From a virus: a DNA stretch of 64,000 nucleotides. Positions 50,043 through 64,000 of the stretch are shown here, in pieces (the first letter of the stretch is position 1; each line of letters begins with the position of its first letter). Where the stretch lies: positions 1-64,000 of IMG/VR virus record IMGVR_UViG_3300025828_000016, one strand, 5' to 3'. Position numbers and translations under genes: made by a program. The notes under the pieces are model-generated. The model was given only the letters and a program-made list of their open reading frames with translations. It searched no databases and was not told the origin of the DNA.

Positions 50043-51896
50043 TTAGTTTCCGCTACAAGCAGTTTCATCAAGGATTTGTAAAAGGTTTCCGTACATTTGT
50101 TCTGCGGAATCAGTAAGTTGCATCATTTTTGCTTTTGTAGAAGCATCAGTAATCGAAGACCATTGAAGATTCGCAAAACCAGAAGTAAAGGCATAAAGAT
50201 TAAAGTCAAGTGCCGCTTCTATTGCCGCTATTACGTTTGATTCTGTTATCTGTGGAAACAAATAAGATTGTGGTTTCTCGTCTGTAAATAATATAACAAC
50301 TCTTTTTGTGTCTTCACGCCATTCTACTTCCCATTCTTCTTTTGGAGGTATAGAACCAGCATTATAGTTAATATTTAACCAAGTCGCCGCATTTACATCA
50401 TAATCTCCACCGCCAACAAGATTTTTAATTGAAAAATAAATGGCGTCTAAACTTTGTTCGTTTCCTCCACTTTGCTGCAGAGGGTCTATCCCAGCGAAAG
50501 AAGACATAAAATCTTCAAAGTTATTTAGGTTTGTTTGTAGTTTCATTTTCTCTATTGGGAAAGAAGTTTCAGGGTCGTTTTCTCGAATAGCAATAAGAAC
50601 AAGTCCCCATCTTATAACCTCTGAATCGCTGTAATAAAGAGCAAACTGACTTAAGGCAGAAAACACAGCATTAATCTCAAAAGTCATAGAACCAGACATA
50701 TCTACAATAAATAAAATGTCTGTTGGGTCCAGTTCCTTTTCTATAATGCCGTCGCAGTTTGTATCTTCGCCATTACAAATGTCTTCGGTCATAGGAGCAA
50801 CTTCGTCTAAACAGAAATCAGGAATAAAAGAACCTTCAACATTATTTCCCCATTCTCCTTCTTTACAGAAAGAAAATCCAGGTTTACAAATGCCTACACC
50901 CATAGTTTGAGGTGGTCCGCTATAACAAAGAGCATAAAGATCTTCGTCTACAAGTTCGTTGCAGTTGTCGTCGTGATTATTGCACTCTTCTGGGATTATC
51001 TTGCCCAAATAAGGGTCGCAGACTTCACCTTCTGCTACAAAGTCTGGGAACCAATGACATTGAGCGAGACAATCCGTCATTTGGAAGGTGGTGCAAAGTT
51101 CGTCAGAACATTCACAAGTTTTAAAACCTTCTCCACAAACTAATGGGTTTTCAGCACAAGGAACTAACATTCCAAGGTCTTTTTCTTGACAGAAGCATTC
51201 TATTCCTTCGTCGATTTGACCGTCGCAGTCGTCGTCCAAACCATTACAGATTTCTTCTTTTGGTTTTTTTGCGGTGCAGACCCAGTTTCCAGCAACGCAA
51301 TATTCTAGGTTGTCCTCACAAGCAGTAGAGCAAGGACGCACAATATCTTCGTCTACTGCACCGTCGCAGTCATTATCAATATTATCGCAGGTTTCTTGCG
51401 GAACTATCCCACAAAAACCACAAGCATTTAGTTGCCCTTCGTCTGTTTCCCCATCACAGTCGTCGTCAAACCCATTACAAACTTCCTCACCGCAGTTTGC
51501 TATGCAATCTGTAAATTTTATTATTCCTTTTACGCAAACTTTGTCCTGTAAACCCTGCCTTCCTTCGTCGTCAACACAAGAAATATCTGTTTCGATAAGA
51601 TACTGGGTTGGGTTGCATTCTAGCTTTTTTTCGCATTCACCTTCATAGACAATAGTTTTAGGTTCATTACATTCATTTACGCAAATCTGTTTTTGCCAAA
51701 CCTCGGATAAATCTTCACAGAAATACCAAGAGCAAACAACACATGGGTCTTCCCAAATAGAGTAAGTGTCTTCTTGGATAACTAAATCAACAACGTCTTG
51801 TGTGTCTTCTGGTTGGACTGAAACTTCTTTTAGATCTTCCTGTTTATTGGAGCAAGAGGCGACAAGCACCAGAAATGAAAAGAGAATTGACTTCAT
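50043..51896 (-). CDS. Lipoprotein with five Cys/Asp-rich metal-binding (MopE-related-type) repeats and a C-terminal vWA domain
   Basis: Lipobox-like LVASC; ExCNGxDDDCDGxxDE x5; ILFIVDMSGSM (MIDAS); ILFTDE. Confidence 0.85.
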   Translation of the reverse strand: MKSILFSFLVLVASCSNKQEDLKEVSVQPEDTQDVVDLVIQEDTYSIWEDPCVVCSWYFCEDLSEVWQKQICVNECNEPKTIVYEGECEKKLECNPTQYLIETDISCVDDEGRQGLQDKVCVKGIIKFTDCIANCGEEVCNGFDDDCDGETDEGQLNACGFCGIVPQETCDNIDNDCDGAVDEDIVRPCSTACEDNLEYCVAGNWVCTAKKPKEEICNGLDDDCDGQIDEGIECFCQEKDLGMLVPCAENPLVCGEGFKTCECSDELCTTFQMTDCLAQCHWFPDFVAEGEVCDPYLGKIIPEECNNHDDNCNELVDEDLYALCYSGPPQTMGVGICKPGFSFCKEGEWGNNVEGSFIPDFCLDEVAPMTEDICNGEDTNCDGIIEKELDPTDILFIVDMSGSMTFEINAVFSALSQFALYYSDSEVIRWGLVLIAIRENDPETSFPIEKMKLQTNLNNFEDFMSSFAGIDPLQQSGGNEQSLDAIYFSIKNLVGGGDYDVNAATWLNINYNAGSIPPKEEWEVEWREDTKRVVILFTDEKPQSYLFPQITESNVIAAIEAALDFNLYAFTSGFANLQWSSITDASTKAKMMQLTDSAEQMYGNLLQILDETACSGN

Positions 51897-51912: not shown

Positions 51913-52266
51913 TTAGGTGAAAGTGTCGTCTATTTGAGGTAATTTTGTGATACGAGTTGAGATAATTCGGTCTCCGTCAGCGTCTTTCATAGTGCCGATT
52001 TTTTGACCGACTTGTTGTAGGTAAGTTAATGCTTTTCCTGGTTCAACGTAAAAACGAACATAAAGTTTCATTAGTTTATTATTGTTTGGGTCTCGCTGAA
52101 TACCTTCGGCGGCACGAATAACAGTGATACCTTCTATTCCACGGATAGCCTCAAACACACGACCATAAAGTTTAGTTGCGCTTTCTGCTTTTACGAGAAG
52201 TTCCGCTTCATAAACCGCTTTTTGTTCGGTTAAAAAGTATTTGAAGTTTTCAAAAAGGTTTTTCAC
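51913..52266 (-). CDS. Tagged hypothetical protein (class B tag; ferredoxin-like fold possible)
   Basis: Starts MKNLFENFKYFLTE; AIRGIEGITVI. Confidence 0.7.
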   Translation of the reverse strand: MKNLFENFKYFLTEQKAVYEAELLVKAESATKLYGRVFEAIRGIEGITVIRAAEGIQRDPNNNKLMKLYVRFYVEPGKALTYLQQVGQKIGTMKDADGDRIISTRITKLPQIDDTFT

Positions 52267-52277
52267 AGTTTATTGTC

Positions 52278-53114
52278 TTACTTACCTGTAACTGCTTTTG
52301 CAGTTTTAAGAACGCCCCTAAAAGCATCAGGGGCATCATTTATAATCTCAGCAGTTGTTCGGCTTCCGAAATCCATAATAGACTTAATTACATTTATTGT
52401 TTGTGCCTTGTATTCTTTTGGTATATCTGGGCTATCTATTGAACTAATCATATCTTTAAGTTCACTCGTGCCAAGTTTATAAACGACTTTTGCAGCACCT
52501 TTTAAGGTGTTAACATCTACCAGTTCTTTTGCATTTTGCAATTTTTCTAGTTCTGCAACTCCTCTTATGAAATGTTCAGCGGTATCAAAGGTTTGCGATT
52601 TGGCTGCAATTCCTTTTATAAAGTTGTATTTATCAATACTTATTGGTTTGCCACCAGCGGCTAATTTTGCTTGTGCTTCTGGAGCAAGAAACACTGACAT
52701 AACTAAAAATAGTAATAATGTCGCAAGTATTTTACATAAGATTGGTCTATTTTTACAAAATTTTCCGACTTTTTCAAAAATTTTTGCACCTGCTTTCAAA
52801 GCGGCAAATCCTGCTCTTTTTGCCATTTGCATAATCTGGATTGTTTTTTCAAGAACAAAATCACTTATTTTGTCTTTTACTTTTCCAACTGCTTGACCAA
52901 TTTTTTGACCAACCTCGCGAGCCTTATCAACAATGCTTTGTTCTAAAATTAGCAATTCTTTTTCAAGTTGATTAAACTCTCTATCAAATTCTTTTTCCCA
53001 TCTTTCATAGAGTTGAGTTTCGTTTATTACTTTTCTATCGTACTGTTCAAGCATTAACTGATATGGATTTTCATTAAACTTTTTCCAGTTTTCCATTATT
53101 AATTTTGTTTCCAT
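52278..53114 (-). CDS. Tagged protein with coiled coil and one hydrophobic helix (start moved to ATG 53114)
   Basis: AAAGGGG RBS, METKLIMENWKKFNE; ILATLLLFLVMSVFL. Confidence 0.7.
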   Translation of the reverse strand: METKLIMENWKKFNENPYQLMLEQYDRKVINETQLYERWEKEFDREFNQLEKELLILEQSIVDKAREVGQKIGQAVGKVKDKISDFVLEKTIQIMQMAKRAGFAALKAGAKIFEKVGKFCKNRPILCKILATLLLFLVMSVFLAPEAQAKLAAGGKPISIDKYNFIKGIAAKSQTFDTAEHFIRGVAELEKLQNAKELVDVNTLKGAAKVVYKLGTSELKDMISSIDSPDIPKEYKAQTINVIKSIMDFGSRTTAEIINDAPDAFRGVLKTAKAVTGK

Positions 53115-53145
53115 TGCAAATTTCCCCTTTGAATCGTAAATATAA

Positions 53146-53487
53146 TTAGTTGCTTTCTTCCAAAGATCCACCAAAACCGGGAGGTGCCGACTTTGATCTT
53201 TTATAAGAAGGTTTAGTCATTCCTTTTACTTTATAATTATTACCACCTTTTCCAACAAGACGGATTTTCATTTTCTTGTGTTTCTTTTTTACTGCTTTCT
53301 GAAAAGGTTCTTCTTCGTTTAGGTTATCGCAAAACTGCTTCATAGAAAAACCCTTTGGGTTGTCGCACTTCTTTGCTCGTTTTCTTCTTTCTGACTTCGA
53401 CCACTTTTCTTGGAGACCGTTAGGTTCCATATAGGGATGGTCTTTGAGATACTTCGCCATTTTTGATGATACTTTAAACTTAATCAA
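53146..53487 (-). CDS. Small basic modular protein
   Basis: LQE|KWSKSERRKRAKKCDNPKGFSMKQFCDNLNE|EEPFQKAVKKKHKK...SLEE. Confidence 0.7.
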   Translation of the reverse strand: MIKFKVSSKMAKYLKDHPYMEPNGLQEKWSKSERRKRAKKCDNPKGFSMKQFCDNLNEEEPFQKAVKKKHKKMKIRLVGKGGNNYKVKGMTKPSYKRSKSAPPGFGGSLEESN

Positions 53488-54112
53488 CTTTCACAAGTTC
53501 CTTCTTTTCTTTATCTAGTTTATAACCAGTTATTTCTGGGTCTACCTCGCCAACATTAAAGAAGTCGAAACCAGGGAGAATAGCAATCTTCTGTTCTGGA
53601 AAGAACCCTCTTTTTATAAAATGACTTGCCTGTCCTACGACCTCGGTGAAAAGTGCCCCTGCTGCTTCGGGAGGAACTGTTTTCATATGTCTATTGTAGG
53701 AGGCGATTTCACCACGAAGGTCAAAACCGGTTTTACCTTGACAGTGGGTCATGTAGTCATGAACTGCTCTCAACTTTAAGTTTAGTTCTGGGTCAAAGAC
53801 AGGGTGAGTAGTTCCACCAGACCAGATTTTTAGAACGCCGTTTTCTAGGGCGTCTTTACACATTTCTTTTTCGGAGGGATAAGGATCTTCATCTACAAAC
53901 TGAACGTCTACTCTGGACCCTATTTGTTTAAACATTTTATTTATGAAAGGTTCTAATGCCTCAAACGCAGGAACGGCAGATTCTTCGAAGGTCGGTGCTT
54001 TTTCATATGCTTGCGCTACGAGTTCTCCATAGAGATCCCAACCGTTTTCTCCTGGTTTGAGAACCAGTTTTTCATTTAGGAACTGTCTCCAGTTTTCAAA
54101 TAGAAGTTTCAT
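53480..54112 (-). CDS. Tagged protein with an HDxxxH...E putative metal site
   Basis: GGAGG RBS, MKLLFENWRQFLNE; LRAVHDYMTH...GEIA...LFTEVVGQ. Confidence 0.7.
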   Translation of the reverse strand: MKLLFENWRQFLNEKLVLKPGENGWDLYGELVAQAYEKAPTFEESAVPAFEALEPFINKMFKQIGSRVDVQFVDEDPYPSEKEMCKDALENGVLKIWSGGTTHPVFDPELNLKLRAVHDYMTHCQGKTGFDLRGEIASYNRHMKTVPPEAAGALFTEVVGQASHFIKRGFFPEQKIAILPGFDFFNVGEVDPEITGYKLDKEKKELVKVD

Positions 54113-54695
54113 TTTCAACCTCCGGTATTACAACCGCCCAGTCTTCACCCCATTGGTTTGCTGGTGGAACGTCTCCACGACCAGACCAAGCAGAAAGAAC
54201 AGAATAAAGTTTATTATCTTCAAGTGCTCTTATTACCTCTGGGTCTTCTCTGAGACTTTCAGGGACATACTGTAAGTCGCTTGTTGGTCTAACTACTACT
54301 GATAGTTTGTCTGTCTTGAAATCTTCAAGAGGTTGAGAGGTTTTATAACCTTTGACGAATATTGGTCCTTGTCTGTCTTCTTTCTCTACTTCTACTTCTT
54401 GTGCGTTTTCTAACTCTTTTGCCTCACTATCGGGCAAAACCAAGTCATAACCAACACCTGGAACGTTAATAGTATAAACCGCTTGACTTGGGTTTACATC
54501 TATCTCTTCTAGTGCTTTATTTACCAAAGATAAATCAAAATCAGCAAATATAGAACCTTTTCCTGGTTCTTTGTGTCCTCTTTCGATATGACCCTTAGCC
54601 CAATCAGAAAATATTATTACAGAATCGTTAGTTTTTACAAGTTCGTCGGCTTCCTTTAATATATACTTACGCCAGTTTTCCATTAGAAGCTTCAT
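54096..54695 (-). CDS. Tagged hypothetical protein
   Basis: MKLLMENWRKYILKE; HIERGH...GSIF. Confidence 0.7.
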   Translation of the reverse strand: MKLLMENWRKYILKEADELVKTNDSVIIFSDWAKGHIERGHKEPGKGSIFADFDLSLVNKALEEIDVNPSQAVYTINVPGVGYDLVLPDSEAKELENAQEVEVEKEDRQGPIFVKGYKTSQPLEDFKTDKLSVVVRPTSDLQYVPESLREDPEVIRALEDNKLYSVLSAWSGRGDVPPANQWGEDWAVVIPEVENETSI

Positions 54696-54967
54696 TTCTT
54701 GATAATCTCCACAATAAGTTTGTTCTTACCCATAAGTAGTCTGTGCCAAGTGTAAGCAGGAATAAAATAAGTCTGACCTTTCTCTAACTTCACCGGAACC
54801 TCGTTTTCCAGTTGTAAATGCCAATCTTTTGACTTTTCTACTGTTATTTGGCGGTCTTCACGGTCTTTATGCCAGATTAACTCACTATTTGAGGTGTTTT
54901 CAGCGTCAAAAATGCGAATAACCTTGTTTTCGGTTATTTTTATCTCTTCAAAGGGGAACTCACGCAC
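54692..54967 (-). CDS. Small cupin-like protein
   Basis: WHKDREDR...GQTYFIPAYTWHRL. Confidence 0.7.
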   Translation of the reverse strand: MREFPFEEIKITENKVIRIFDAENTSNSELIWHKDREDRQITVEKSKDWHLQLENEVPVKLEKGQTYFIPAYTWHRLLMGKNKLIVEIIKK

Positions 54968-55551
54968 TACCAGAACCTACCGGGGACATTCTTACCAAAA
55001 TACTTGTGTGCTCGACAAGCCCAGTATCCTGCTTTGGTTTTATCTTTCTTTTCAGCGCAATTATGGCGATTTGCGAAGTTGGCACGAGCTTCAGCGTTAT
55101 TCCAGTTGCCTTTTAGACCGCCTTTCTTGTCTCCGAAGGTTACTTTTTTAATATTTCCGGTTTTTGGGTCTCTAACAAAGACTTTATACTTCTTTCCACC
55201 ACCAGAATTAAGAGTTGGTTTGTTAAGTGGCGGATTTTTCTTCTTTTTTGCCTTCTTTTTCTTCTCATCAAGGGGCATTGGGAAGTCAAGAGGCACTTTT
55301 TTGCCTTCATAGAGGGCGAATTCGCCAATATCAGTCTCATTTATCCAATATTTTTCGTTTTCGTCCAATTTATAGAGCCCATTTTTGGATAATTTGCGAA
55401 CTTCAGCAAATAACTCGAAATACTTGGTTGAACCCGGTCTAAAAATGTTCTCATTTAAGCGAATATTGTTCTTTAAATGGAACTTTAGACCCTCGGACAG
55501 TAGGTTGTCCATTTCTTCACGAATAATACGTTTTAGTTCGAAAAGTTTCAT
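54967..55551 (-). CDS. Tagged modular basic protein (start moved to ATG 55551)
   Basis: MKLFELKRIIREEM; LDE|KKKKAKKKK; KKVTFGD...ARANFANRHNC...AGYWAC. Confidence 0.75.
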   Translation of the reverse strand: MKLFELKRIIREEMDNLLSEGLKFHLKNNIRLNENIFRPGSTKYFELFAEVRKLSKNGLYKLDENEKYWINETDIGEFALYEGKKVPLDFPMPLDEKKKKAKKKKNPPLNKPTLNSGGGKKYKVFVRDPKTGNIKKVTFGDKKGGLKGNWNNAEARANFANRHNCAEKKDKTKAGYWACRAHKYFGKNVPGRFW

Positions 55552-55573
55552 TATTTCTAGTCCTTTAATCCTT

Positions 55574-56059
55574 TTATGCTTGTTGTTTTTGCATTGCATC
55601 TGGACCTTTTGCAATTGGTACCATATAAACGGTGTTTGGATCTCTAGGTTCGAATACGAAAGCCCTAGTTACACCAGAACCAGGGTTCTCATCAACAAAG
55701 TCAATAAAAATTTGACCAGGGTTTGCCTTTTCAAACGCTTTTATTTTTTCTGGTTTAAACTCTCCCTGTCGTTTTAGTTGTATATAACGCTCTTTGGTGT
55801 CGATATGTGGAACATGTACGGATAATGCATCTTTGGTTAGTTCCACATCTTTTGCGTTGGGAGAGCGTCTTCGATGTTTTCTAGTATCAAACTTTGCATC
55901 CGAGTAACTCATCTTTCTGAATTGAGAAATGTGACCGCCCCAACCGGGATCTAAAACATCCCAGGTGCTTGCTTCTTTGTCCATACCTGATAATTCTTCT
56001 TTTAGGATTTGTATCTCTTCTTTAATAATATCTTTTAGTTGATTTTTTGTGATTTTCAT
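55574..56059 (-). CDS. Tagged hypothetical protein
   Basis: MKITKNQLKDIIKEEIQILKEE. Confidence 0.75.
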   Translation of the reverse strand: MKITKNQLKDIIKEEIQILKEELSGMDKEASTWDVLDPGWGGHISQFRKMSYSDAKFDTRKHRRRSPNAKDVELTKDALSVHVPHIDTKERYIQLKRQGEFKPEKIKAFEKANPGQIFIDFVDENPGSGVTRAFVFEPRDPNTVYMVPIAKGPDAMQKQQA

Positions 56060-56670
56060 CCTTTTTTCCCCTTTGCTGTTTTCTTACCCCAAGACTTTCC
56101 ACGTCCTCGCTCTTTACAAGCACCAGGAGTGGGACGACAAGCAGGATATTTTGCTCGTTTTTCGCCTTTTTCACGACCACATGCTTTACATTTAGTTCGA
56201 CCGGTCTTTTTATCTTTACGGCAAGTGTTACAGTCTACCCAACCGCCTTTTTTACCTTTTGCGCCTTTGCGTTTAAACCAGTCTCTTAGTGAGGATTCTT
56301 TGCTTGATTCAGTTCCCGCTTTCTTTTTTTTTTCGTCTAACTCTATTTCGACAATGTATCCTTCTTCTGGTTCGTCGGCACAGTTGCCTTCTTTGATGCC
56401 TTTCCAGATTTCACCACGACGGCATCTTACAACAGCACCAGAAGCATAAGCAGACGGCCAAGTATCGTATTTGCGTTTAGCAATGCGGACACAACGGTCG
56501 TCTTTTTTCTTTTTCTTCTTCTTTTTTTTCTTTTTCTTTTTTTCGTCGAGGGTTTCATCGACAGAGGATAAGACTTCGATGTCGTTGTCTTCTGTATCAA
56601 CAGGGTTCTGAATATTTCTACCAGCGGGAGGTGATAGGACTATTTCTCTTATGTTGATACTTATTGACAT
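56056..56670 (-). CDS. Highly basic Cys-rich modular protein with a 13-Lys run
   Basis: LDE|K13 DDRC...WPSAYASGAVVRC; LDE|KKKK...LRDWF...GGWVDC...YPACRP. Confidence 0.75.
   Translation of the reverse strand: MSISINIREIVLSPPAGRNIQNPVDTEDNDIEVLSSVDETLDEKKKKKKKKKKKKKDDRCVRIAKRKYDTWPSAYASGAVVRCRRGEIWKGIKEGNCADEPEEGYIVEIELDEKKKKAGTESSKESSLRDWFKRKGAKGKKGGWVDCNTCRKDKKTGRTKCKACGREKGEKRAKYPACRPTPGACKERGRGKSWGKKTAKGKKG
56503..56541 (-). repeat. 13 consecutive Lys codons (mixed AAA/AAG)
   Basis: Read directly from the sequence. Confidence 0.95.
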
Positions 56671-56894
56671 TATTTAGGTTTTCCTTCCATTTTTCTTACC
56701 AAAGAGTAGATTTCCCATCTCTTAAGTTTGCGTGCCATAGCAGCAATGTTAAATAGTTGTGGAGTTTGGACAAATGGAAAAATGCCGTGGACTAGTAGAC
56801 AACAAGATGACACGAGCATGTGAAATGCTGCTCTCCAGGCAAATTTGAGGTGTCCGAAGTAAGTTTCATTATTTTCTTTTAGATGCTTAATCAT
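56670..56894 (-). CDS. Small hydrophobic protein (DUF6356-like)
   Basis: HLKENNETYFGHLKFA...LVHGIFPF. Confidence 0.6.
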   Translation of the reverse strand: MIKHLKENNETYFGHLKFAWRAAFHMLVSSCCLLVHGIFPFVQTPQLFNIAAMARKLKRWEIYSLVRKMEGKPK

Positions 56895-57289
56895 TAACCC
56901 ACACCCAAAGAACCTGACCAGTTAGAACCAGATGGTGAAATATTAGTGATACGGTCTGATGAAATACCTGTAAGACCAGCAAAAACATCAACGTCTCCAG
57001 AACCACTCAGCCAAACTTGTGAAACTTTAACTTCAAATCTTTCAGAAGCGGTTTGACCTCTTACTGTGAAGTAGTTTGTACCGGCGCCATCAACTCCCAG
57101 TTCTGAAAACCCAACTCTACATACGTTAGCAGTGTTATTCACAACATAAATCCACCTAGATACAGATGGGAATTCTACACTCATAGTTTCAGAAGCATCA
57201 AGACCACCACTAACAAACGGCTTGCCGCTGGATTGATAAGAACCGACATTACTTAATCCGGTACCGTATTTATAATCTGGATAAGACAT
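56894..57289 (-). CDS. Small beta-rich putative virion protein, paralog 1
   Basis: MSYPDYKYGTGLSNVGSYQSSGKPF...NWSGSLGVG; AAGGAG RBS. Confidence 0.7.
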   Translation of the reverse strand: MSYPDYKYGTGLSNVGSYQSSGKPFVSGGLDASETMSVEFPSVSRWIYVVNNTANVCRVGFSELGVDGAGTNYFTVRGQTASERFEVKVSQVWLSGSGDVDVFAGLTGISSDRITNISPSGSNWSGSLGVG

Positions 57290-57327
57290 TTAAATCTCCT
57301 TTTTATGTAAGTAGTTAGTTTGTCTTC

Positions 57328-58863
57328 TTATTGCTGTTCAAACCAACTTATTCCACCTAACCCTGCAACTGCTGCGGTTGTACTAACAGCAAGTAATAAG
57401 TTGTTACCAACTCCAAAAGCAAAACTTAAACTTTTTAAATCCTTTGACACGCCTTGACCCGCTCCTGCTACAACTTCGTAAATGGGTGTAAGATTGGAAA
57501 TATTTACAATAGCATTACTTGCTGGATCTAAGGCAGCATAAGAAACAATGCTTTCCTGCTCGTCAATATATTGATAGTTTACCTCTCCAGTTACTTCAAC
57601 ATTTAAAAAGAGTGCTATTGTTACTGTTTTCGGTGTTGCACCACCAGATTCATTCGATGCTCTTATGTCCAATACATCAAACTCGCCAAAGCAACTTTGA
57701 TCTTTAAAAACTCTGTTTGTTTTAAAAAGAGCAAGCGGTTTATAAACTCCGCTAGTATCGACAGAAAAACTAAAAGATTTAGAAAATTTAGGATCTAGTG
57801 AATTAACTTCACCCTCAATAAAACCAGCCATAGAAGCAGTTTTTAATTTTTTACTTGTTGTGCCTCCAATATTGGCAGAGGTAGCCAAAATAGCAACATT
57901 TGGATTTTTTAGAACTGGTGTTGTCCTAGCGTTTGCGTTTTTTATTCTATGAAACTTTGCTGTATGTCCTGTTTCTGGGTCTTCTACAAAGAAATCAGCA
58001 TTACCGTATCCTAAATACTGGAAATCAATTTCATAAACATTTCCCTTTTGAGGGTCCAAAGTCATTCCACTTGGTCCTGTGCCGTCCATTTTATCAACAT
58101 TAAAAGAAGCAGAAGGAATGAAATCGTTAGACTGCGCTTCACCCTCTACCACTCTTGTGAAAGCTCCAACAATAGAACCACCAGAAGAAACAGAATAGGT
58201 GCTAGTAAGACCAGCGGCAGAACGAGCAGAAATAAAATAAACAGAACCAGACTGTGCGTCTGCTAACCAGCCACCTGTTCCAAGTTGCGAATAATCTGCT
58301 TTAGCAAGTTGATAAGCGGTTTGCTCTGGGGAGCCAGCGCCCACTACTGGAACGACTTGACTATAACCGTTTAGAGTAACTGTAACGTTTTCGGTTCCTG
58401 CTCCTGTTGTAATGTCTAGTCTTCTTATCTCACGAGAACCAGAGATAGAGTGTAGAATACCAAAATTAGTTCCAAAGTAACCAACAAAATAACCGCATTC
58501 TGCCGTTCCACCACCGATAAATTGAGCGTTTCCTGCGTCTGGTTCAGAGAAAAGAGCGGTTGCTTTTAAAGCAGAACCTTGTCCTGGTCTGTATTTTAGC
58601 CCTCTTCTTAGTTGAACTGTCGCAGAGCCAGAAGCAGAAGTTCCGCTGCTTAATTCACATTGACCATCTACTACGGCAATTGATGCGCCAGCAAAAGACG
58701 AAGAAATAAAATTTTGATTTCCTATGCCATAAACAAAATCGCCTTGAGCGATAGGGTTTTTTCTAGAAACCAAAACTTCACCAAAGGTTGAGTTTGGAGA
58801 AGCAATGTGAACGTTATCAGCGCCGAGCGTCTTTTTTGGTTTATTTAAATCAGTAAATCCCAT
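57328..58863 (-). CDS. Putative virion structural protein (beta-sandwich/lectin-like; start moved to ATG 58863)
   Basis: G/S/T-rich; LKYRPGQG and IDFQYLGYG motifs; TAATG coupling. Confidence 0.6.
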   Translation of the reverse strand: MGFTDLNKPKKTLGADNVHIASPNSTFGEVLVSRKNPIAQGDFVYGIGNQNFISSSFAGASIAVVDGQCELSSGTSASGSATVQLRRGLKYRPGQGSALKATALFSEPDAGNAQFIGGGTAECGYFVGYFGTNFGILHSISGSREIRRLDITTGAGTENVTVTLNGYSQVVPVVGAGSPEQTAYQLAKADYSQLGTGGWLADAQSGSVYFISARSAAGLTSTYSVSSGGSIVGAFTRVVEGEAQSNDFIPSASFNVDKMDGTGPSGMTLDPQKGNVYEIDFQYLGYGNADFFVEDPETGHTAKFHRIKNANARTTPVLKNPNVAILATSANIGGTTSKKLKTASMAGFIEGEVNSLDPKFSKSFSFSVDTSGVYKPLALFKTNRVFKDQSCFGEFDVLDIRASNESGGATPKTVTIALFLNVEVTGEVNYQYIDEQESIVSYAALDPASNAIVNISNLTPIYEVVAGAGQGVSKDLKSLSFAFGVGNNLLLAVSTTAAVAGLGGISWFEQQ

Positions 58864-59279
58864 TATCCTACCCCCACAGAACCAGACCAATTATTAGCAA
58901 GGTGACTTTGATCGATCCCTGTTAAACCAGCGATAACAGAAGCACTACACTCATTTGGGCTATCGCTCATAAGATAAACAGAAGTTACTTTAAACTCTGC
59001 TTCAAATGATTCTCCATTATTTAAAATAGCATAATTACTGTCTTCTATTCCCTGCACACCGTTTGCCGAAAAACCAAAACGAAGAGGAACATTAGGAGCA
59101 CTTCCTGCTAGTGTGTTCGTGATAATTACAAATCTTGTTACTGAATCAAAAGAAACTTCTTTTGGTGTATTCCCAGAAGCAGGAACATTTAGTGAAGAAG
59201 TTAGATAAGGTCGTGCTGAAACTTGATAAGAACCAACATTCCTTAGACCTGTTCCATAGCTGTAATTTGGATAAGACAT
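58863..59279 (-). CDS. Small beta-rich putative virion protein, paralog 2
   Basis: MSYPNYSYGTGLRNVGSYQVSARPY...NWSGSVGVG. Confidence 0.7.
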   Translation of the reverse strand: MSYPNYSYGTGLRNVGSYQVSARPYLTSSLNVPASGNTPKEVSFDSVTRFVIITNTLAGSAPNVPLRFGFSANGVQGIEDSNYAILNNGESFEAEFKVTSVYLMSDSPNECSASVIAGLTGIDQSHLANNWSGSVGVG

Positions 59280-60055
59280 TATTGATTAACTCCCATTAAA
59301 GCATCGTATGAATCTGTTCTAATATTATTTAGTTTCTCTAAATAATCGTTTCTTCGGAGGACTTTAAAAACTAGATTTTCAACCGAATAGATCCCACCGC
59401 TTTCCAAACCTGCTTTTCTATAACGCTTGATACGTTCCATAATAGCATCACCCGCTTGTTTTGCTTGTAGGAAATCTTTTTCAGCATACATATCGTAAGC
59501 ATCATCGATCTCGTCCATTATTCTGGCAGCTTTCTCTTTTACCATTTTATAATCGACGTTCATTCTACTGCTTGATGGTCTTTGCACCCAGCGATTGTTC
59601 ATAAGAGAATAAACCCCAGCAGAATGATGAGGTTCGTTTGTATCTTGAACATAGATTTCAACTTCAAAACCCTTGAAGAGAATTTTGTGAATTATATTCC
59701 ACAGTCTTGATTTCTGACTTAGATAATCTTTTAGAAGTTCTTTATCTTTTAACTGGTTAAAATCAATAAGAATATGAAGATCAAAGTCTGACATATCAGA
59801 CCAATTGTAAGACGCAAGAGAACCTGTGAGGGTAATATCTTTTATCTTTACATTGGGATCTAACTTGAGATCTTCGAAATATTCGTTGGCGATATTGAGG
59901 GCTGCCTGAAGAATCTCTGGATCAAGTTGTTGGTTCCTGGTCCAGAGATCTTCAGGCAGGGAGGTTTTCGAAATTAAGGTGGAGGTGTTAACTGACTCGG
60001 GTTCTATTAGTTCCTCAAGATAAGTTCTCCAAGTGTTCCAATTGTTTGAGTTCAT
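59279..60055 (-). CDS. Pol-beta-superfamily nucleotidyltransferase
   Basis: TLTGSLASYNWSDMSDFDLHIL (GS...DxD), third acidic residue in VEIYV, helical C-terminal domain. Confidence 0.82.
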   Translation of the reverse strand: MNSNNWNTWRTYLEELIEPESVNTSTLISKTSLPEDLWTRNQQLDPEILQAALNIANEYFEDLKLDPNVKIKDITLTGSLASYNWSDMSDFDLHILIDFNQLKDKELLKDYLSQKSRLWNIIHKILFKGFEVEIYVQDTNEPHHSAGVYSLMNNRWVQRPSSSRMNVDYKMVKEKAARIMDEIDDAYDMYAEKDFLQAKQAGDAIMERIKRYRKAGLESGGIYSVENLVFKVLRRNDYLEKLNNIRTDSYDALMGVNQ

Positions 60056-60764: not shown

Positions 60765-61091
60765 TCAGGTTTCTTCGTCAATTGTATCTTCTTCTTGAGC
60801 GTCAGCCTGTTCACCTTTCATATAATTCATAACAGCACTCATATAATCTTGTGCTTTTGTGATTTTTGATTCTACCCACTCTGGAAGGTTTGTATCGTCA
60901 TCAACCATTTCATCAATCATCGTAGCAAGGTCAGCAATGCGGTTTAGTTGAGAGTCAGCCATAGCGCCTTCGCCATCTCCATCGCCATCATCCATTTGCT
61001 TTCTAGCACGGGCTGCGAGATATGTGCCGAGAACTTCGGACTGTATTTCTTCTTTGATAAGTTCTTTTAATCTTGCTTTTGTTATCTTCAT
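60765..61091 (-). CDS. Tagged acidic helical protein (candidate head-internal)
   Basis: MKITKARLKELIKEEIQ; EGAMADSQL...LPEWVESKITKAQDYM. Confidence 0.75.
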   Translation of the reverse strand: MKITKARLKELIKEEIQSEVLGTYLAARARKQMDDGDGDGEGAMADSQLNRIADLATMIDEMVDDDTNLPEWVESKITKAQDYMSAVMNYMKGEQADAQEEDTIDEET

Positions 61092-62067: not shown

Positions 62068-62829
62068 TTAACTTTTGATCTCTTCTCTAATCATTTGCTT
62101 TAAACGAGATTGGGTTAGTTTGTTTTCTTCAAATCTTCTTCTACCTCTTCTGCTTCTCTGTGGAAGATAGCTTTGTGCTTGTCTCGCTTGTCGTCTAGCA
62201 ATACCGGCTGGGCTATCGTGATAATCGTCTCTTTCATCCTCATAGTCATATCTACGACTTGGGCGACTTTTAGGACGCTCTTTTTCTGGTTCTTTTTTCT
62301 TTGTTTTAGCCACAAAGTAGGTATTATCAGGCATATTCTCAAGGTCTTCTTCAGTAACACTCATAAAAGCACTTTTTACTGCTGGATCTTCGATTAACTC
62401 TGCGCCGCTTTTAAGGTAGTCCAAAGCTCTCTCTGGAGATAAATTAAGTCCACCCTTTGTGCCGCCACCAGACCACCCTTCTGTACCCCAGCCGACGCCA
62501 CGATCTAAGCCAGTAAACGGATTAACGTCTCGAAACACAATCAGCACATTTACGCTGCCGTTGTTTTTACCAAGAATAAGACCCTCGCCGCCTTCCATAA
62601 CGTGATCTTCAAGATCTTTCATGCCGGGGTCTTCTTCTTTTGCCCTATCTCTTTCTGGTCCAGTAATCCAATAATTGGAAGGAAATTCATAAACGCCAGA
62701 GGGTAGATTATCAAAATCTAAACCTTCGCCTTCAGTTTCTTCAACCTCGGCTTCCATTTCTTCAGCTTCCATAATGCTTTGTAGTTCTTCTTTGATTAAC
62801 TGCTTGAGTTTTGATTTGGTGATTTTCAT
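62068..62829 (-). CDS. Acidic protein carrying the class A tag at both termini
   Basis: MKITKSKLKQLIKEEL ... KLTQSRLKQMIREEIKS-stop. Confidence 0.8.
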   Translation of the reverse strand: MKITKSKLKQLIKEELQSIMEAEEMEAEVEETEGEGLDFDNLPSGVYEFPSNYWITGPERDRAKEEDPGMKDLEDHVMEGGEGLILGKNNGSVNVLIVFRDVNPFTGLDRGVGWGTEGWSGGGTKGGLNLSPERALDYLKSGAELIEDPAVKSAFMSVTEEDLENMPDNTYFVAKTKKKEPEKERPKSRPSRRYDYEDERDDYHDSPAGIARRQARQAQSYLPQRSRRGRRRFEENKLTQSRLKQMIREEIKS

Positions 62830-62843
62830 TTTTGGTTCCTTTA

Positions 62844-63083
62844 TTAATCGTCTTCGAACTCACGTTGAGCCACTTTAACTATTTTTGCTAAAAACTTTGC
62901 TGATGTAGTGTATCCGTGTGTTGGGTTAAACTCTCCTGGGTCAACAACTTCTATGTTTGTATCATATCCATCATCAGATATGCTAACTTCTACAAATTGA
63001 CCTTCAGAAAACTCTTCTTCGTCATATTGTTCTTTTAGTGTTTCAACAATAAGTTGTTTAAGTTTGGATTTGGTAATTTTCAT
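62844..63083 (-). CDS. Small tagged acidic protein
   Basis: MKITKSKLKQLIVETLKE; GAGGAG RBS. Confidence 0.75.
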   Translation of the reverse strand: MKITKSKLKQLIVETLKEQYDEEEFSEGQFVEVSISDDGYDTNIEVVDPGEFNPTHGYTTSAKFLAKIVKVAQREFEDD

Positions 63084-63681: not shown

Positions 63682-63906
63682 ATGGTTGAAGGCGCTTTAG
63701 CGATAATAAAAGTTGGCAAGAAAACTAGATTCAGTGTCTATAGGGGTAGATACTCTGAATTCTATGGTAAAAAAGATGCCTTATTTACAAAGAAATTTGC
63801 CGGGGAAGACCCGCTTGTGTTCTCGGAGCAACGAGAGGACGGGTCATGGGTAATAAGGCATTATTTTTTTAAAAGTAGCGATTTATACTTAGAGTGGTTA
63901 ACTTAG
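63682..63906 (+). CDS. Small beta-rich protein, paralog of 61821..62066
   Basis: GALAIIK...LVFSEQREDGSWV...LEWLT. Confidence 0.65.
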   Translation: MVEGALAIIKVGKKTRFSVYRGRYSEFYGKKDALFTKKFAGEDPLVFSEQREDGSWVIRHYFFKSSDLYLEWLT

Positions 63907-64000
63907 TTAGGGACTTCTTCCACAACCCCAGTAACCGTTAGGTCGCCCTTAAAAGGCTCGAAATTGTCTTCGGGAATTTTGTTAGAGTGGAAAGGTTTTC
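63903..64000 (-). CDS. 3' end of a gene entering from the right edge
   Basis: ...KPFHSNKIPEDNFEPFKGDLTVTGVVEEVPN-stop. Confidence 0.45.
   Translation of the reverse strand, partial: KPFHSNKIPEDNFEPFKGDLTVTGVVEEVPN

Follow-up and report, generated by a model that had tools for sequence, protein, structure and literature searches.

A modular N-terminal tag on unrelated phage proteins: a candidate variant of the T4 capsid-targeting propeptide

The internal proteins of bacteriophage T4 carry targeting propeptides of 10–19 residues, and the T4 head protease, gp21, cuts after the motif L/I-x-E (PMC9026906). The capsid-targeting sequence (CTS) of T4 reads MKTYQEFIAE (PMC8442874). Residues 4 and 7 of the propeptide are assigned to targeting and residues 8 and 10 to processing (PMC9026906), and the capsid protein gp23 has its first 65 residues removed (PMC9958956). 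The comparison with this system made here draws on PMC9026906 and PMC3012670. How proteins are localized in the core “remains mysterious,” in the words of a T4 review (PMC9958956). Here, we describe another short peptide, the class-B tag, which begins otherwise unrelated proteins encoded in a 64,000-nucleotide stretch of viral DNA (positions 1 to 64,000 of IMG/VR record IMGVR_UViG_3300025828_000016; “the window”). The tag is a genuine and modular feature, specific to viruses, on which selection acts at the level of the peptide. That it is a lineage-specific 14-residue variant of the T4 capsid-targeting propeptide is the reading we favor, and we consider it an even call.

The class-B consensus, M-K-L-L-x-E-N-W-(R/K)-x-(F/Y)-L-x-E or a variant of it, begins five genes in the window and a sixth that starts just beyond its end. 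The five N-termini lie where the first-pass annotation had placed them, at 54112, 54695, 53114, 52266, and 60055, and these genes, like the sixth and like the class-A and structural-protein genes of the window described below, are on the minus strand. The gene at 53480..54112 (210 amino acids [aa]) opens with MKLLFENWRQFLNE and continues into an HDxxxH domain (phrog_3170), and the one at 54096..54695 (199 aa) joins MKLLMENWRKYILKE to an acidic body of no known family. In the 278-aa protein at 52278..53114, the tag, METKLIMENWKKFNE, has two extra leading residues, and the body reads as helical with a hydrophobic stretch. Its longest open reading frame (ORF) could begin at TTG 53174, yet relatives begin at the tag (one in L015 starts MKHKLIMENWRLYEQ), and the length is counted from the ATG. 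The 117-aa protein at 51913..52266 begins at a GTG, with the tag (M)KNLFENFKYFLTE in codons 52225-52266 and a body of no known family; a stop codon lies two codons upstream of this GTG, and a homologue in L037 begins MKKLLERWNSYLSE (E 6e-14). The fifth, at 59279..60055, is a 258-aa protein resembling Pol-beta-type nucleotidyltransferases (NTases; phrog_36119) and carries a diverged half-tag, MNSNNWNTWRTYLEE. The sixth gene (149 aa; 63903..64000, or 63903-64352 on the contig) has its 3' end in the window and its tag, MKLILERWNQYLLTE, beyond it; the body contains a 2H cyclic-phosphodiesterase domain (tRNA_lig_CPD, 27 bits against a cut-off of 23). The gp21 motif L/I-x-E ends the sixth tag and, as had been noticed at the first pass, four of the five window tags; the exception is 53114, with F-N-E, and at 54695 the motif (L-K-E) falls one residue later, at residues 13-15.

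A strict protein pattern run on the six-frame translation of the window finds three matches; in 60 mononucleotide shuffles of the window it has none, and 60 trinucleotide-block shuffles average 0.05. When the bodies of the tagged proteins (residue 17 to the end) are compared all against all by BLASTP, the best E value is 0.017, over 23 residues. The earlier description of the downstream domains as unrelated therefore stands, and paralogy over the full length, which had been named as the observation that would speak against it, is ruled out by the same comparison.

The tag is widespread among viruses. A DNA pattern fixing only M1, K2, E6, N7, W8, R9, and F/Y11 was run on viral contigs and matched in at least 119 contig stretches, with up to 6 matches per locus. 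The matches listed, to which the counts in this paragraph refer, number 170; 160 of them are ORFs of at least 60 aa, and they yield 148 distinct tagged proteins, with 143 bodies falling into 88 BLAST clusters. At the positions left free by the pattern, Leu occupies position 3 in 119 of the 148, Leu or Ile position 4 in 146, L/M/F/I position 5 in 147, L/I/V/M position 12 in 124, and Glu position 14 in 113. Fewer than 46 codons are open upstream of the tag in 145 of the 148 genes. The codons vary across the 148 tags (all six Leu codons are used for Leu3, and five Arg codons plus one Ser codon at position 9), and each of the 30 bases upstream carries 0.5 bit or less. The copies in the window likewise have differing synonymous codons and unrelated upstream DNA. 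Near-constancy is thus seen in the amino acids but not in the codons or the upstream DNA, and the tag is accordingly selected as a peptide and not as DNA.

As a control, the same DNA pattern was run on 596 Gb of bacterial and archaeal genomes, where it gave at least 122 matches, most of them in short ORFs whose residues at the free positions are random. Among the matches listed, 14 are canonical, and 9 of these lie in ORFs of more than 100 aa. All nine are on contigs of metagenome-assembled genomes (MAGs), with no isolate genome represented, and one appears by eye to be an ordinary cellular enzyme and a chance match. Since this control is mostly noise, the tag is essentially viral. The canonical tags on MAG contigs L157, L172, L174, L199, L216, L231, and L236 come from Woesearchaeota, Opitutia, Undinarchaeota, WOR-3, Isosphaeraceae, and Pelagibacter bins, and one tagged MAG gene has a start nearly identical to that of a viral-contig protein. 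These contigs are probably phage contigs that were mis-binned into MAGs. A chance origin of the tag was also considered, and it is ruled out by the shuffles together with the mostly noisy cellular control.

Within carrier genomes, a relaxed tag pattern finds 1-9 tags per genome, mostly in arrays of 5-10 kb, and the reversed pattern used as a control finds none. One carrier genome (G015; complete, 186 kb) is syntenic with the window, in that a homologue of the window's vWA lipoprotein is followed by a tag array in which an 80%-identical HDxxxH gene is conserved and the surrounding cargo is otherwise different. By tblastn, neither the 199-aa protein nor a tagged HAD protein has a real match among 50,697 phage records, and the class-B pattern has no match in the cultured T4-like phages HTVC008M and cyanophage S-B68. 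No published report that prints the tag was found in the PMC open-access or bioRxiv literature, and the literature on capsid targeting in marine phages and cyanophages from the same two sources yielded no such tag either.

The first-pass annotation had also asked if the N-terminus could belong to the fold of the proteins. Homologues of the HDxxxH domain in actinophages can be aligned only from residue 30-32; they lack the tag, and the domain lies inside larger proteins. Rhodococcus phage E3 gp205 (858 aa, annotated “structural protein”) contains the domain, an annotation to which little weight is given. Among the best 120 of 277 matches to the HDxxxH family, nearly all have the tag, and in this family the hydrophobic-x-Glu (h-x-E) ending always stands directly before the body, even in members with an insertion of 4-90 residues behind the tag. 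In a 61-row alignment of the family, W8 and E14 do not vary. In an AlphaFold model of the HDxxxH protein (61 homologues), residues 1-12 have a predicted local distance difference test (pLDDT) score below 50 and the body a score above 90. The model of the NTase (64 homologues) gives residues 1-16 a pLDDT below 50, with a helix at 7-13, and the body again more than 90. In both models the tag is a short, low-confidence helix that, by this prediction, stands apart from the folded body. The HDxxxH body has no match in the PDB at E 0.001 or better by Foldseek, and a wide VIA-align search reached a best Z of 3.8, with no PDB fold match.

The N-terminus of the NTase had been called degenerate. It is indeed diverged, but it is a conserved half-tag: of the 120 homologues listed, almost every one with an unbroken N-terminus retains W-(K/R)-x-(F/Y)-L-E-E, preceded by a variable start. 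The canonical start MKLLLESFRQYLEE is found in one relative, and another lacks the tag.

The end of the tag points toward a head protease. [LIVM]-x-E stands at residues 12-14 or 13-15 in 124 of the 148 tags from the matches listed, and among ORFs of at least 80 aa in the loci the h-x-E ending is found in 119/157 class-B proteins, 16/22 proteins with a second kind of tag (class A, described below), and 111/1514 untagged ones. In T4, residues 62-65 of gp23 are FLTE, and the tag at 52266 ends in the same four residues; an alignment of marine capsid proteins with T4 gp23 is ambiguous across the propeptide region. A protease of the T4 gp21 type (Peptidase_S77) is present in 5/5 and 9/14 carrier contigs longer than 100 kb and in all seven carrier genomes that are at least 90% complete. 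The five large carrier contigs without it are 29-68% complete. The 27 carriers between 37 and 97 kb all have completeness ratings of 20-53%, which puts their genomes at about 180 kb, so that none is a complete small phage; three of them have the protease, and the overall count is 17/46 carrier contigs. The gp23 capsid protein was found in the four complete carriers examined, and the capsid gene is preceded, immediately upstream, by an acidic scaffold gene of the gp22-like kind. The head module of one relative also has a class-B-like tagged gene for a very acidic 182-aa protein just upstream of the protease (L123 533-1081, G001; start MKLLLEHWNRYLQE). In a PHROGs search of the head-module neighbors in relatives, 9/10 had no family. 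A separate observation is that the gene next after the protease in G001 has ATWRTFLNE at residues 16-24.

If the class-B peptide does act as a capsid tag, it would form a short amphipathic helix, which by inspection places L4, L5, W8, F/Y11, and L12 on one face. Through this helix, the protein would dock, once made, onto the scaffolding core of a prohead under assembly. A gp21-family head protease would then cut after Glu14 of the terminal hydrophobic-x-Glu, and the cargo, thus freed inside the capsid, would leave with the DNA. The support for this reading is circumstantial: the tag is modular, ends in a cleavage motif, and appears confined to T4-like phages that have the protease. In the window, the tagged genes also adjoin a gene for a virion structural protein.

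Several observations weigh against the capsid reading, and the cargo is chief among them. The cargo survey covers 127 of the 148 tagged proteins in the matches listed, all 90-720 aa long and encoded by complete ORFs. Most have no Pfam family; HAD_SAK_1 is found in 7 and GNAT in 2, and NUDIX, RNase_T, Zeta_toxin/AAA kinases, tRNA_lig_CPD, 5'-nucleotidase, Peptidase_M23, Amidase_2, and others are single cases. By PHROGs, there are 6 polynucleotide kinases, 4 5'-3' deoxyribonucleotidases, 3 endolysin-type proteins, 2 metallo-endopeptidases, a NUDIX protein, and an exonuclease, and none of the 25 PHROG families listed for the cargo has a head or internal virion annotation. The cargo that can be named thus consists mostly of nucleotide and RNA-repair enzymes. 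Polynucleotide kinase, nucleotidase, and like enzymes are cytoplasmic early proteins in T4. The enzyme cargo counts against a simple T4-like picture or, alternatively, is a set for immediate use. The class-B bodies in the window have isoelectric points (pI) of 4.4-9.2, compared to the highly basic internal proteins of T4. The tag arrays look like ordinary early-gene clusters, and the majority are distant from the head module. There is no enrichment of the T4 late promoter TATAAATA in the window (10 occurrences compared to 7.7 expected); the promoter lies upstream of 0/154 tagged genes and 3/702 untagged ORFs, which is uninformative on timing.

The link to the protease also has its limits. The counts cover tag carriers only, and marine phage contigs longer than 100 kb may be mostly T4-like anyway. 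On the window's own contig, which is about 48% complete, neither gp21 nor gp23 had a match, and its 85.5 kb contain no capsid, portal, or protease gene. Cleavage and packaging of the tagged proteins are themselves predictions from the sequence. The parallel with the T4 CTS drawn in the first-pass annotation holds in part: the layout and the (F/Y)-h-x-E end are alike, which is circumstantial, but the T4-type 10-residue pattern itself (M-K-x-F/Y-x-x-F/Y-h-x-E) has no match in the window's contig or in G015. In T4, the same pattern has three matches: ipII, ipIII, and gene 61.1. The last of these (NC_000866 18966-19130) codes for gp61.1, a 54-aa hypothetical protein that begins MKTFKEFIKE. Synechococcus phage S-B68 has a 289-aa hypothetical protein (L120 2729-3598), two genes upstream of an NTase homologue, that begins MKNFNSFLTE and fits the pattern as well. 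Cyanophages, too, may have T4-type tags.

The main rival to the capsid reading is that the tag is a dockerin-like docking peptide that gathers enzymes on an intracellular scaffold other than the capsid, for example, a nucleotide-metabolism or RNA-repair assembly. The predominance of nucleotide and RNA enzymes among the nameable cargo, the early-gene look of the arrays with their distance from the head genes, and the detached amphipathic helix predicted by the models all agree with such a hub. It leaves unexplained, however, why the terminal h-x-E is nearly fixed, with an invariant Glu directly before the body, and why the tag is found on peptidoglycan hydrolases and peptidases as well as on kinases. 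Nor does any conserved untagged gene suggest itself as the hub: across 118 loci, each taken with about 5-7 kb of flank, untagged families reach 25 loci at most, and the commonest neighboring family (33/118 loci) is itself partly tagged. We regard the docking hub as unlikely. A predicted complex of the G015 scaffold protein with the tagged HDxxxH protein returned no answer (score 0.00), which carries weight neither way on binding. The absence of a co-occurring enzyme family in the same 118 loci also speaks against the tag being a leader by which a modifying enzyme recognizes its substrate, as in ribosomally synthesized and post-translationally modified peptides; this reading is very improbable.

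A short amphipathic peptide that is predicted to be flexible and has Trp and Phe/Tyr on one face could instead target membranes, or it could be a degradation or timing signal read by a host or phage protease, with no role in packaging. E6, N7, and E14 are conserved, however, and conserved acidic or polar residues are unusual in membrane-binding helices. The cargo includes soluble nucleic-acid enzymes, and the motif is limited to one T4-like clade and essentially absent from cellular genomes, so we find this quite improbable. One could also consider that the conserved element acts as DNA or RNA, either as a recombination handle for cassette exchange or as an enhancer of translation starts, with the peptide as a by-product. 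Identical 27-base tag starts do occur inside single genomes (3 in L060 and 2 each in L026, L031, L072, and L078), and many are also found within G001 and G015. Yet the synonymous variation and unconserved upstream DNA described above, in the window copies as elsewhere, accompany nearly fixed amino acids, and the chance that the peptide is a by-product is accordingly very slight. Recombination at the tags may well occur, but as a consequence, and the identical starts suggest just such a side effect. A Sec, Tat, or lipoprotein signal peptide was rejected by inspection, as there is no uninterrupted hydrophobic core of some 10 residues or longer behind a basic N-terminus, and positions 6, 7, 9, 10, 13, and 14 are charged or polar.

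The class-B genes share their locus with the other tag class, as the first-pass annotation had reported. Class A (MKITKxxLKxxIKEE) begins the genes at 54967-55551 (MKLFELKRIIREE) and 55574-56059 (MKITKNQLKDIIKEE), which lie between class-B genes, and three more at 60765-61091, 62068-62829, and 62844-63083. Both tags are 14 residues long and have [LI]-x-E at residues 12-14. Homologous domains are found behind either of them: for the body encoded at 60765-61091, matches are found to part of a 621-aa protein with a class-B tag (E 4e-11) and to a protein beginning MSNSTSKWFKYLTE (E 9e-7), and the C-terminal domain of the 54967-55551 protein matches a class-B protein (E 8e-9). The exchange of cargo between tag classes that had been proposed as a check is thus borne out to the extent of shared domains, but there are no clean one-for-one swaps. 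The earlier suggestion of two docking sites, or of two loading or ejection routes, is not favored because the domains are shared and the tags are equal in length and ending; a single destination would fit at least as well as two. A conserved protein of 120-152 aa found right after the head protease begins with the class-A-like M-x-K-x-E-L-K-K-x-L-K-P-L-I-K-E and has no PHROGs family (L122 2050-2412, L124 963-1421, L126 943-1386; also L036, L040, L067, L068, and L090). The class-A tag may be a copy of the N-terminus of this core head-module protein.

A broader picture can be drawn, although we hold it to be tentative and rather doubtful. A marine T4-like clade that is abundant and uncultured, with genomes of about 180-200 kb, would preload its capsids with a large and rapidly exchanged set of enzymes by means of two interchangeable 14-residue tags, which the head protease would clip. 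The set would comprise polynucleotide kinase/HAD/2H-phosphoesterase RNA-repair modules, nucleotidases, NUDIX proteins, nucleotidyltransferases, and wall hydrolases. Counter-defense and take-over chemistry would then start at DNA entry, and the tags would double as recombination handles. If the capsid reading is true, the idea of internal proteins extends from three small basic coliphage proteins to dozens of enzyme families of ocean phages, and a simple sequence rule predicts which proteins are injected. This would lead to new counter-defense enzymes and to a ready-made packaging tag for engineering marine phages. A second tag family, longer and highly conserved, would also give comparative leverage on how proteins reach the T4 core. 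If the capsid reading is false, the tag is still an undescribed address label common to at least 88 protein families.

In a linear virus contig of 85.5 kb, the window takes up the first 64 kb. It contains very large tail- or fiber-like ORFs together with a homologue of the baseplate wedge, PhoH, and a block of genes for sugar modification, and ocean surveys, with “tara” among the sources, are the main source of homologues of its proteins. The tagged genes overlap or abut their neighbors within one minus-strand block. The virion structural protein mentioned above (phrog_1645, 511-520 aa), relatives of which occur in cyanomyoviruses, is encoded within 56894..59279 between two paralogues of 131 and 138 aa (56894-57289 and 58863-59279), which are 40% identical. 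Homologues of these paralogues (E 4e-21 to 4e-11) adjoin the head-protease module in G002 and G003, after a ribosomal-protein-S21-like gene, and they are probably a head or neck component in the phage group of the window. A small basic protein that resembles bS21 by eye lies just downstream of the head protease at L122 2421-2645, L124 739-960, and L126 704-937.

Other genes stand among or near the tagged ones. Two very basic, Lys-rich proteins are encoded at 53146-53487 and 56056-56670 (pI 10.0 and 9.8), one of them with 13 consecutive Lys; the 113-aa Lys-rich protein matches, by its C-terminus, the end of a G015 protein with a class-B tag. Beyond the window, at 64352-65236 of the contig, an untagged 294-aa endolysin-like protein (PG_binding_1 + Amidase_2) is encoded between tagged genes of class A and class B. 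At 50043-51896, the window encodes a 617-aa lipoprotein-like protein with MopE-type Cys repeats and a vWA domain, and it is the 38%-identical homologue of this protein that adjoins the G015 tag array.

Among described systems, the giant phages phiKZ, 201phi2-1, and SPN3US are alike in that their heads take up many different propeptide-bearing head and ejection proteins, which a gp21-type protease, a diverged homologue of gp21, processes after a Glu (PMC9026906). Their cleavage occurs at S/A-x-E, with a small P3 residue where class B has a hydrophobic one (PMC9026906), and the part of PMC9026906 drawn on here describes no single shared N-terminal tag for them. The closest system is the CTS of T4, present on IPII and IPIII, with related propeptides on IPI and Alt, and removed by gp21. 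The two differ in several ways. Class B has 14 residues compared to 10 in T4, and its invariant N-W-R core is not found in T4. Set side by side, MKTYQE-FIAE and MKLLxE-NWRx-(F/Y)LxE require a 4-residue insertion, which would amount to one extra helical turn, in an alignment made by eye and not statistical. A single genome has up to nine strict class-B genes plus a second tag class, whereas T4 has two pattern matches at its ip genes. The cargo of class B, a system known from sequence alone, is mostly enzymes of 100-700 aa that are often acidic, and that of T4 is small and basic. In both, however, a short N-terminal peptide is common to unrelated proteins of one phage. It begins with M-K-x-hydrophobic-x-E and ends with aromatic-hydrophobic-x-E, its genes sit in variable arrays, as in the ip loci of T-even phages, and the carriers encode proteins of the gp21 and gp23 families.

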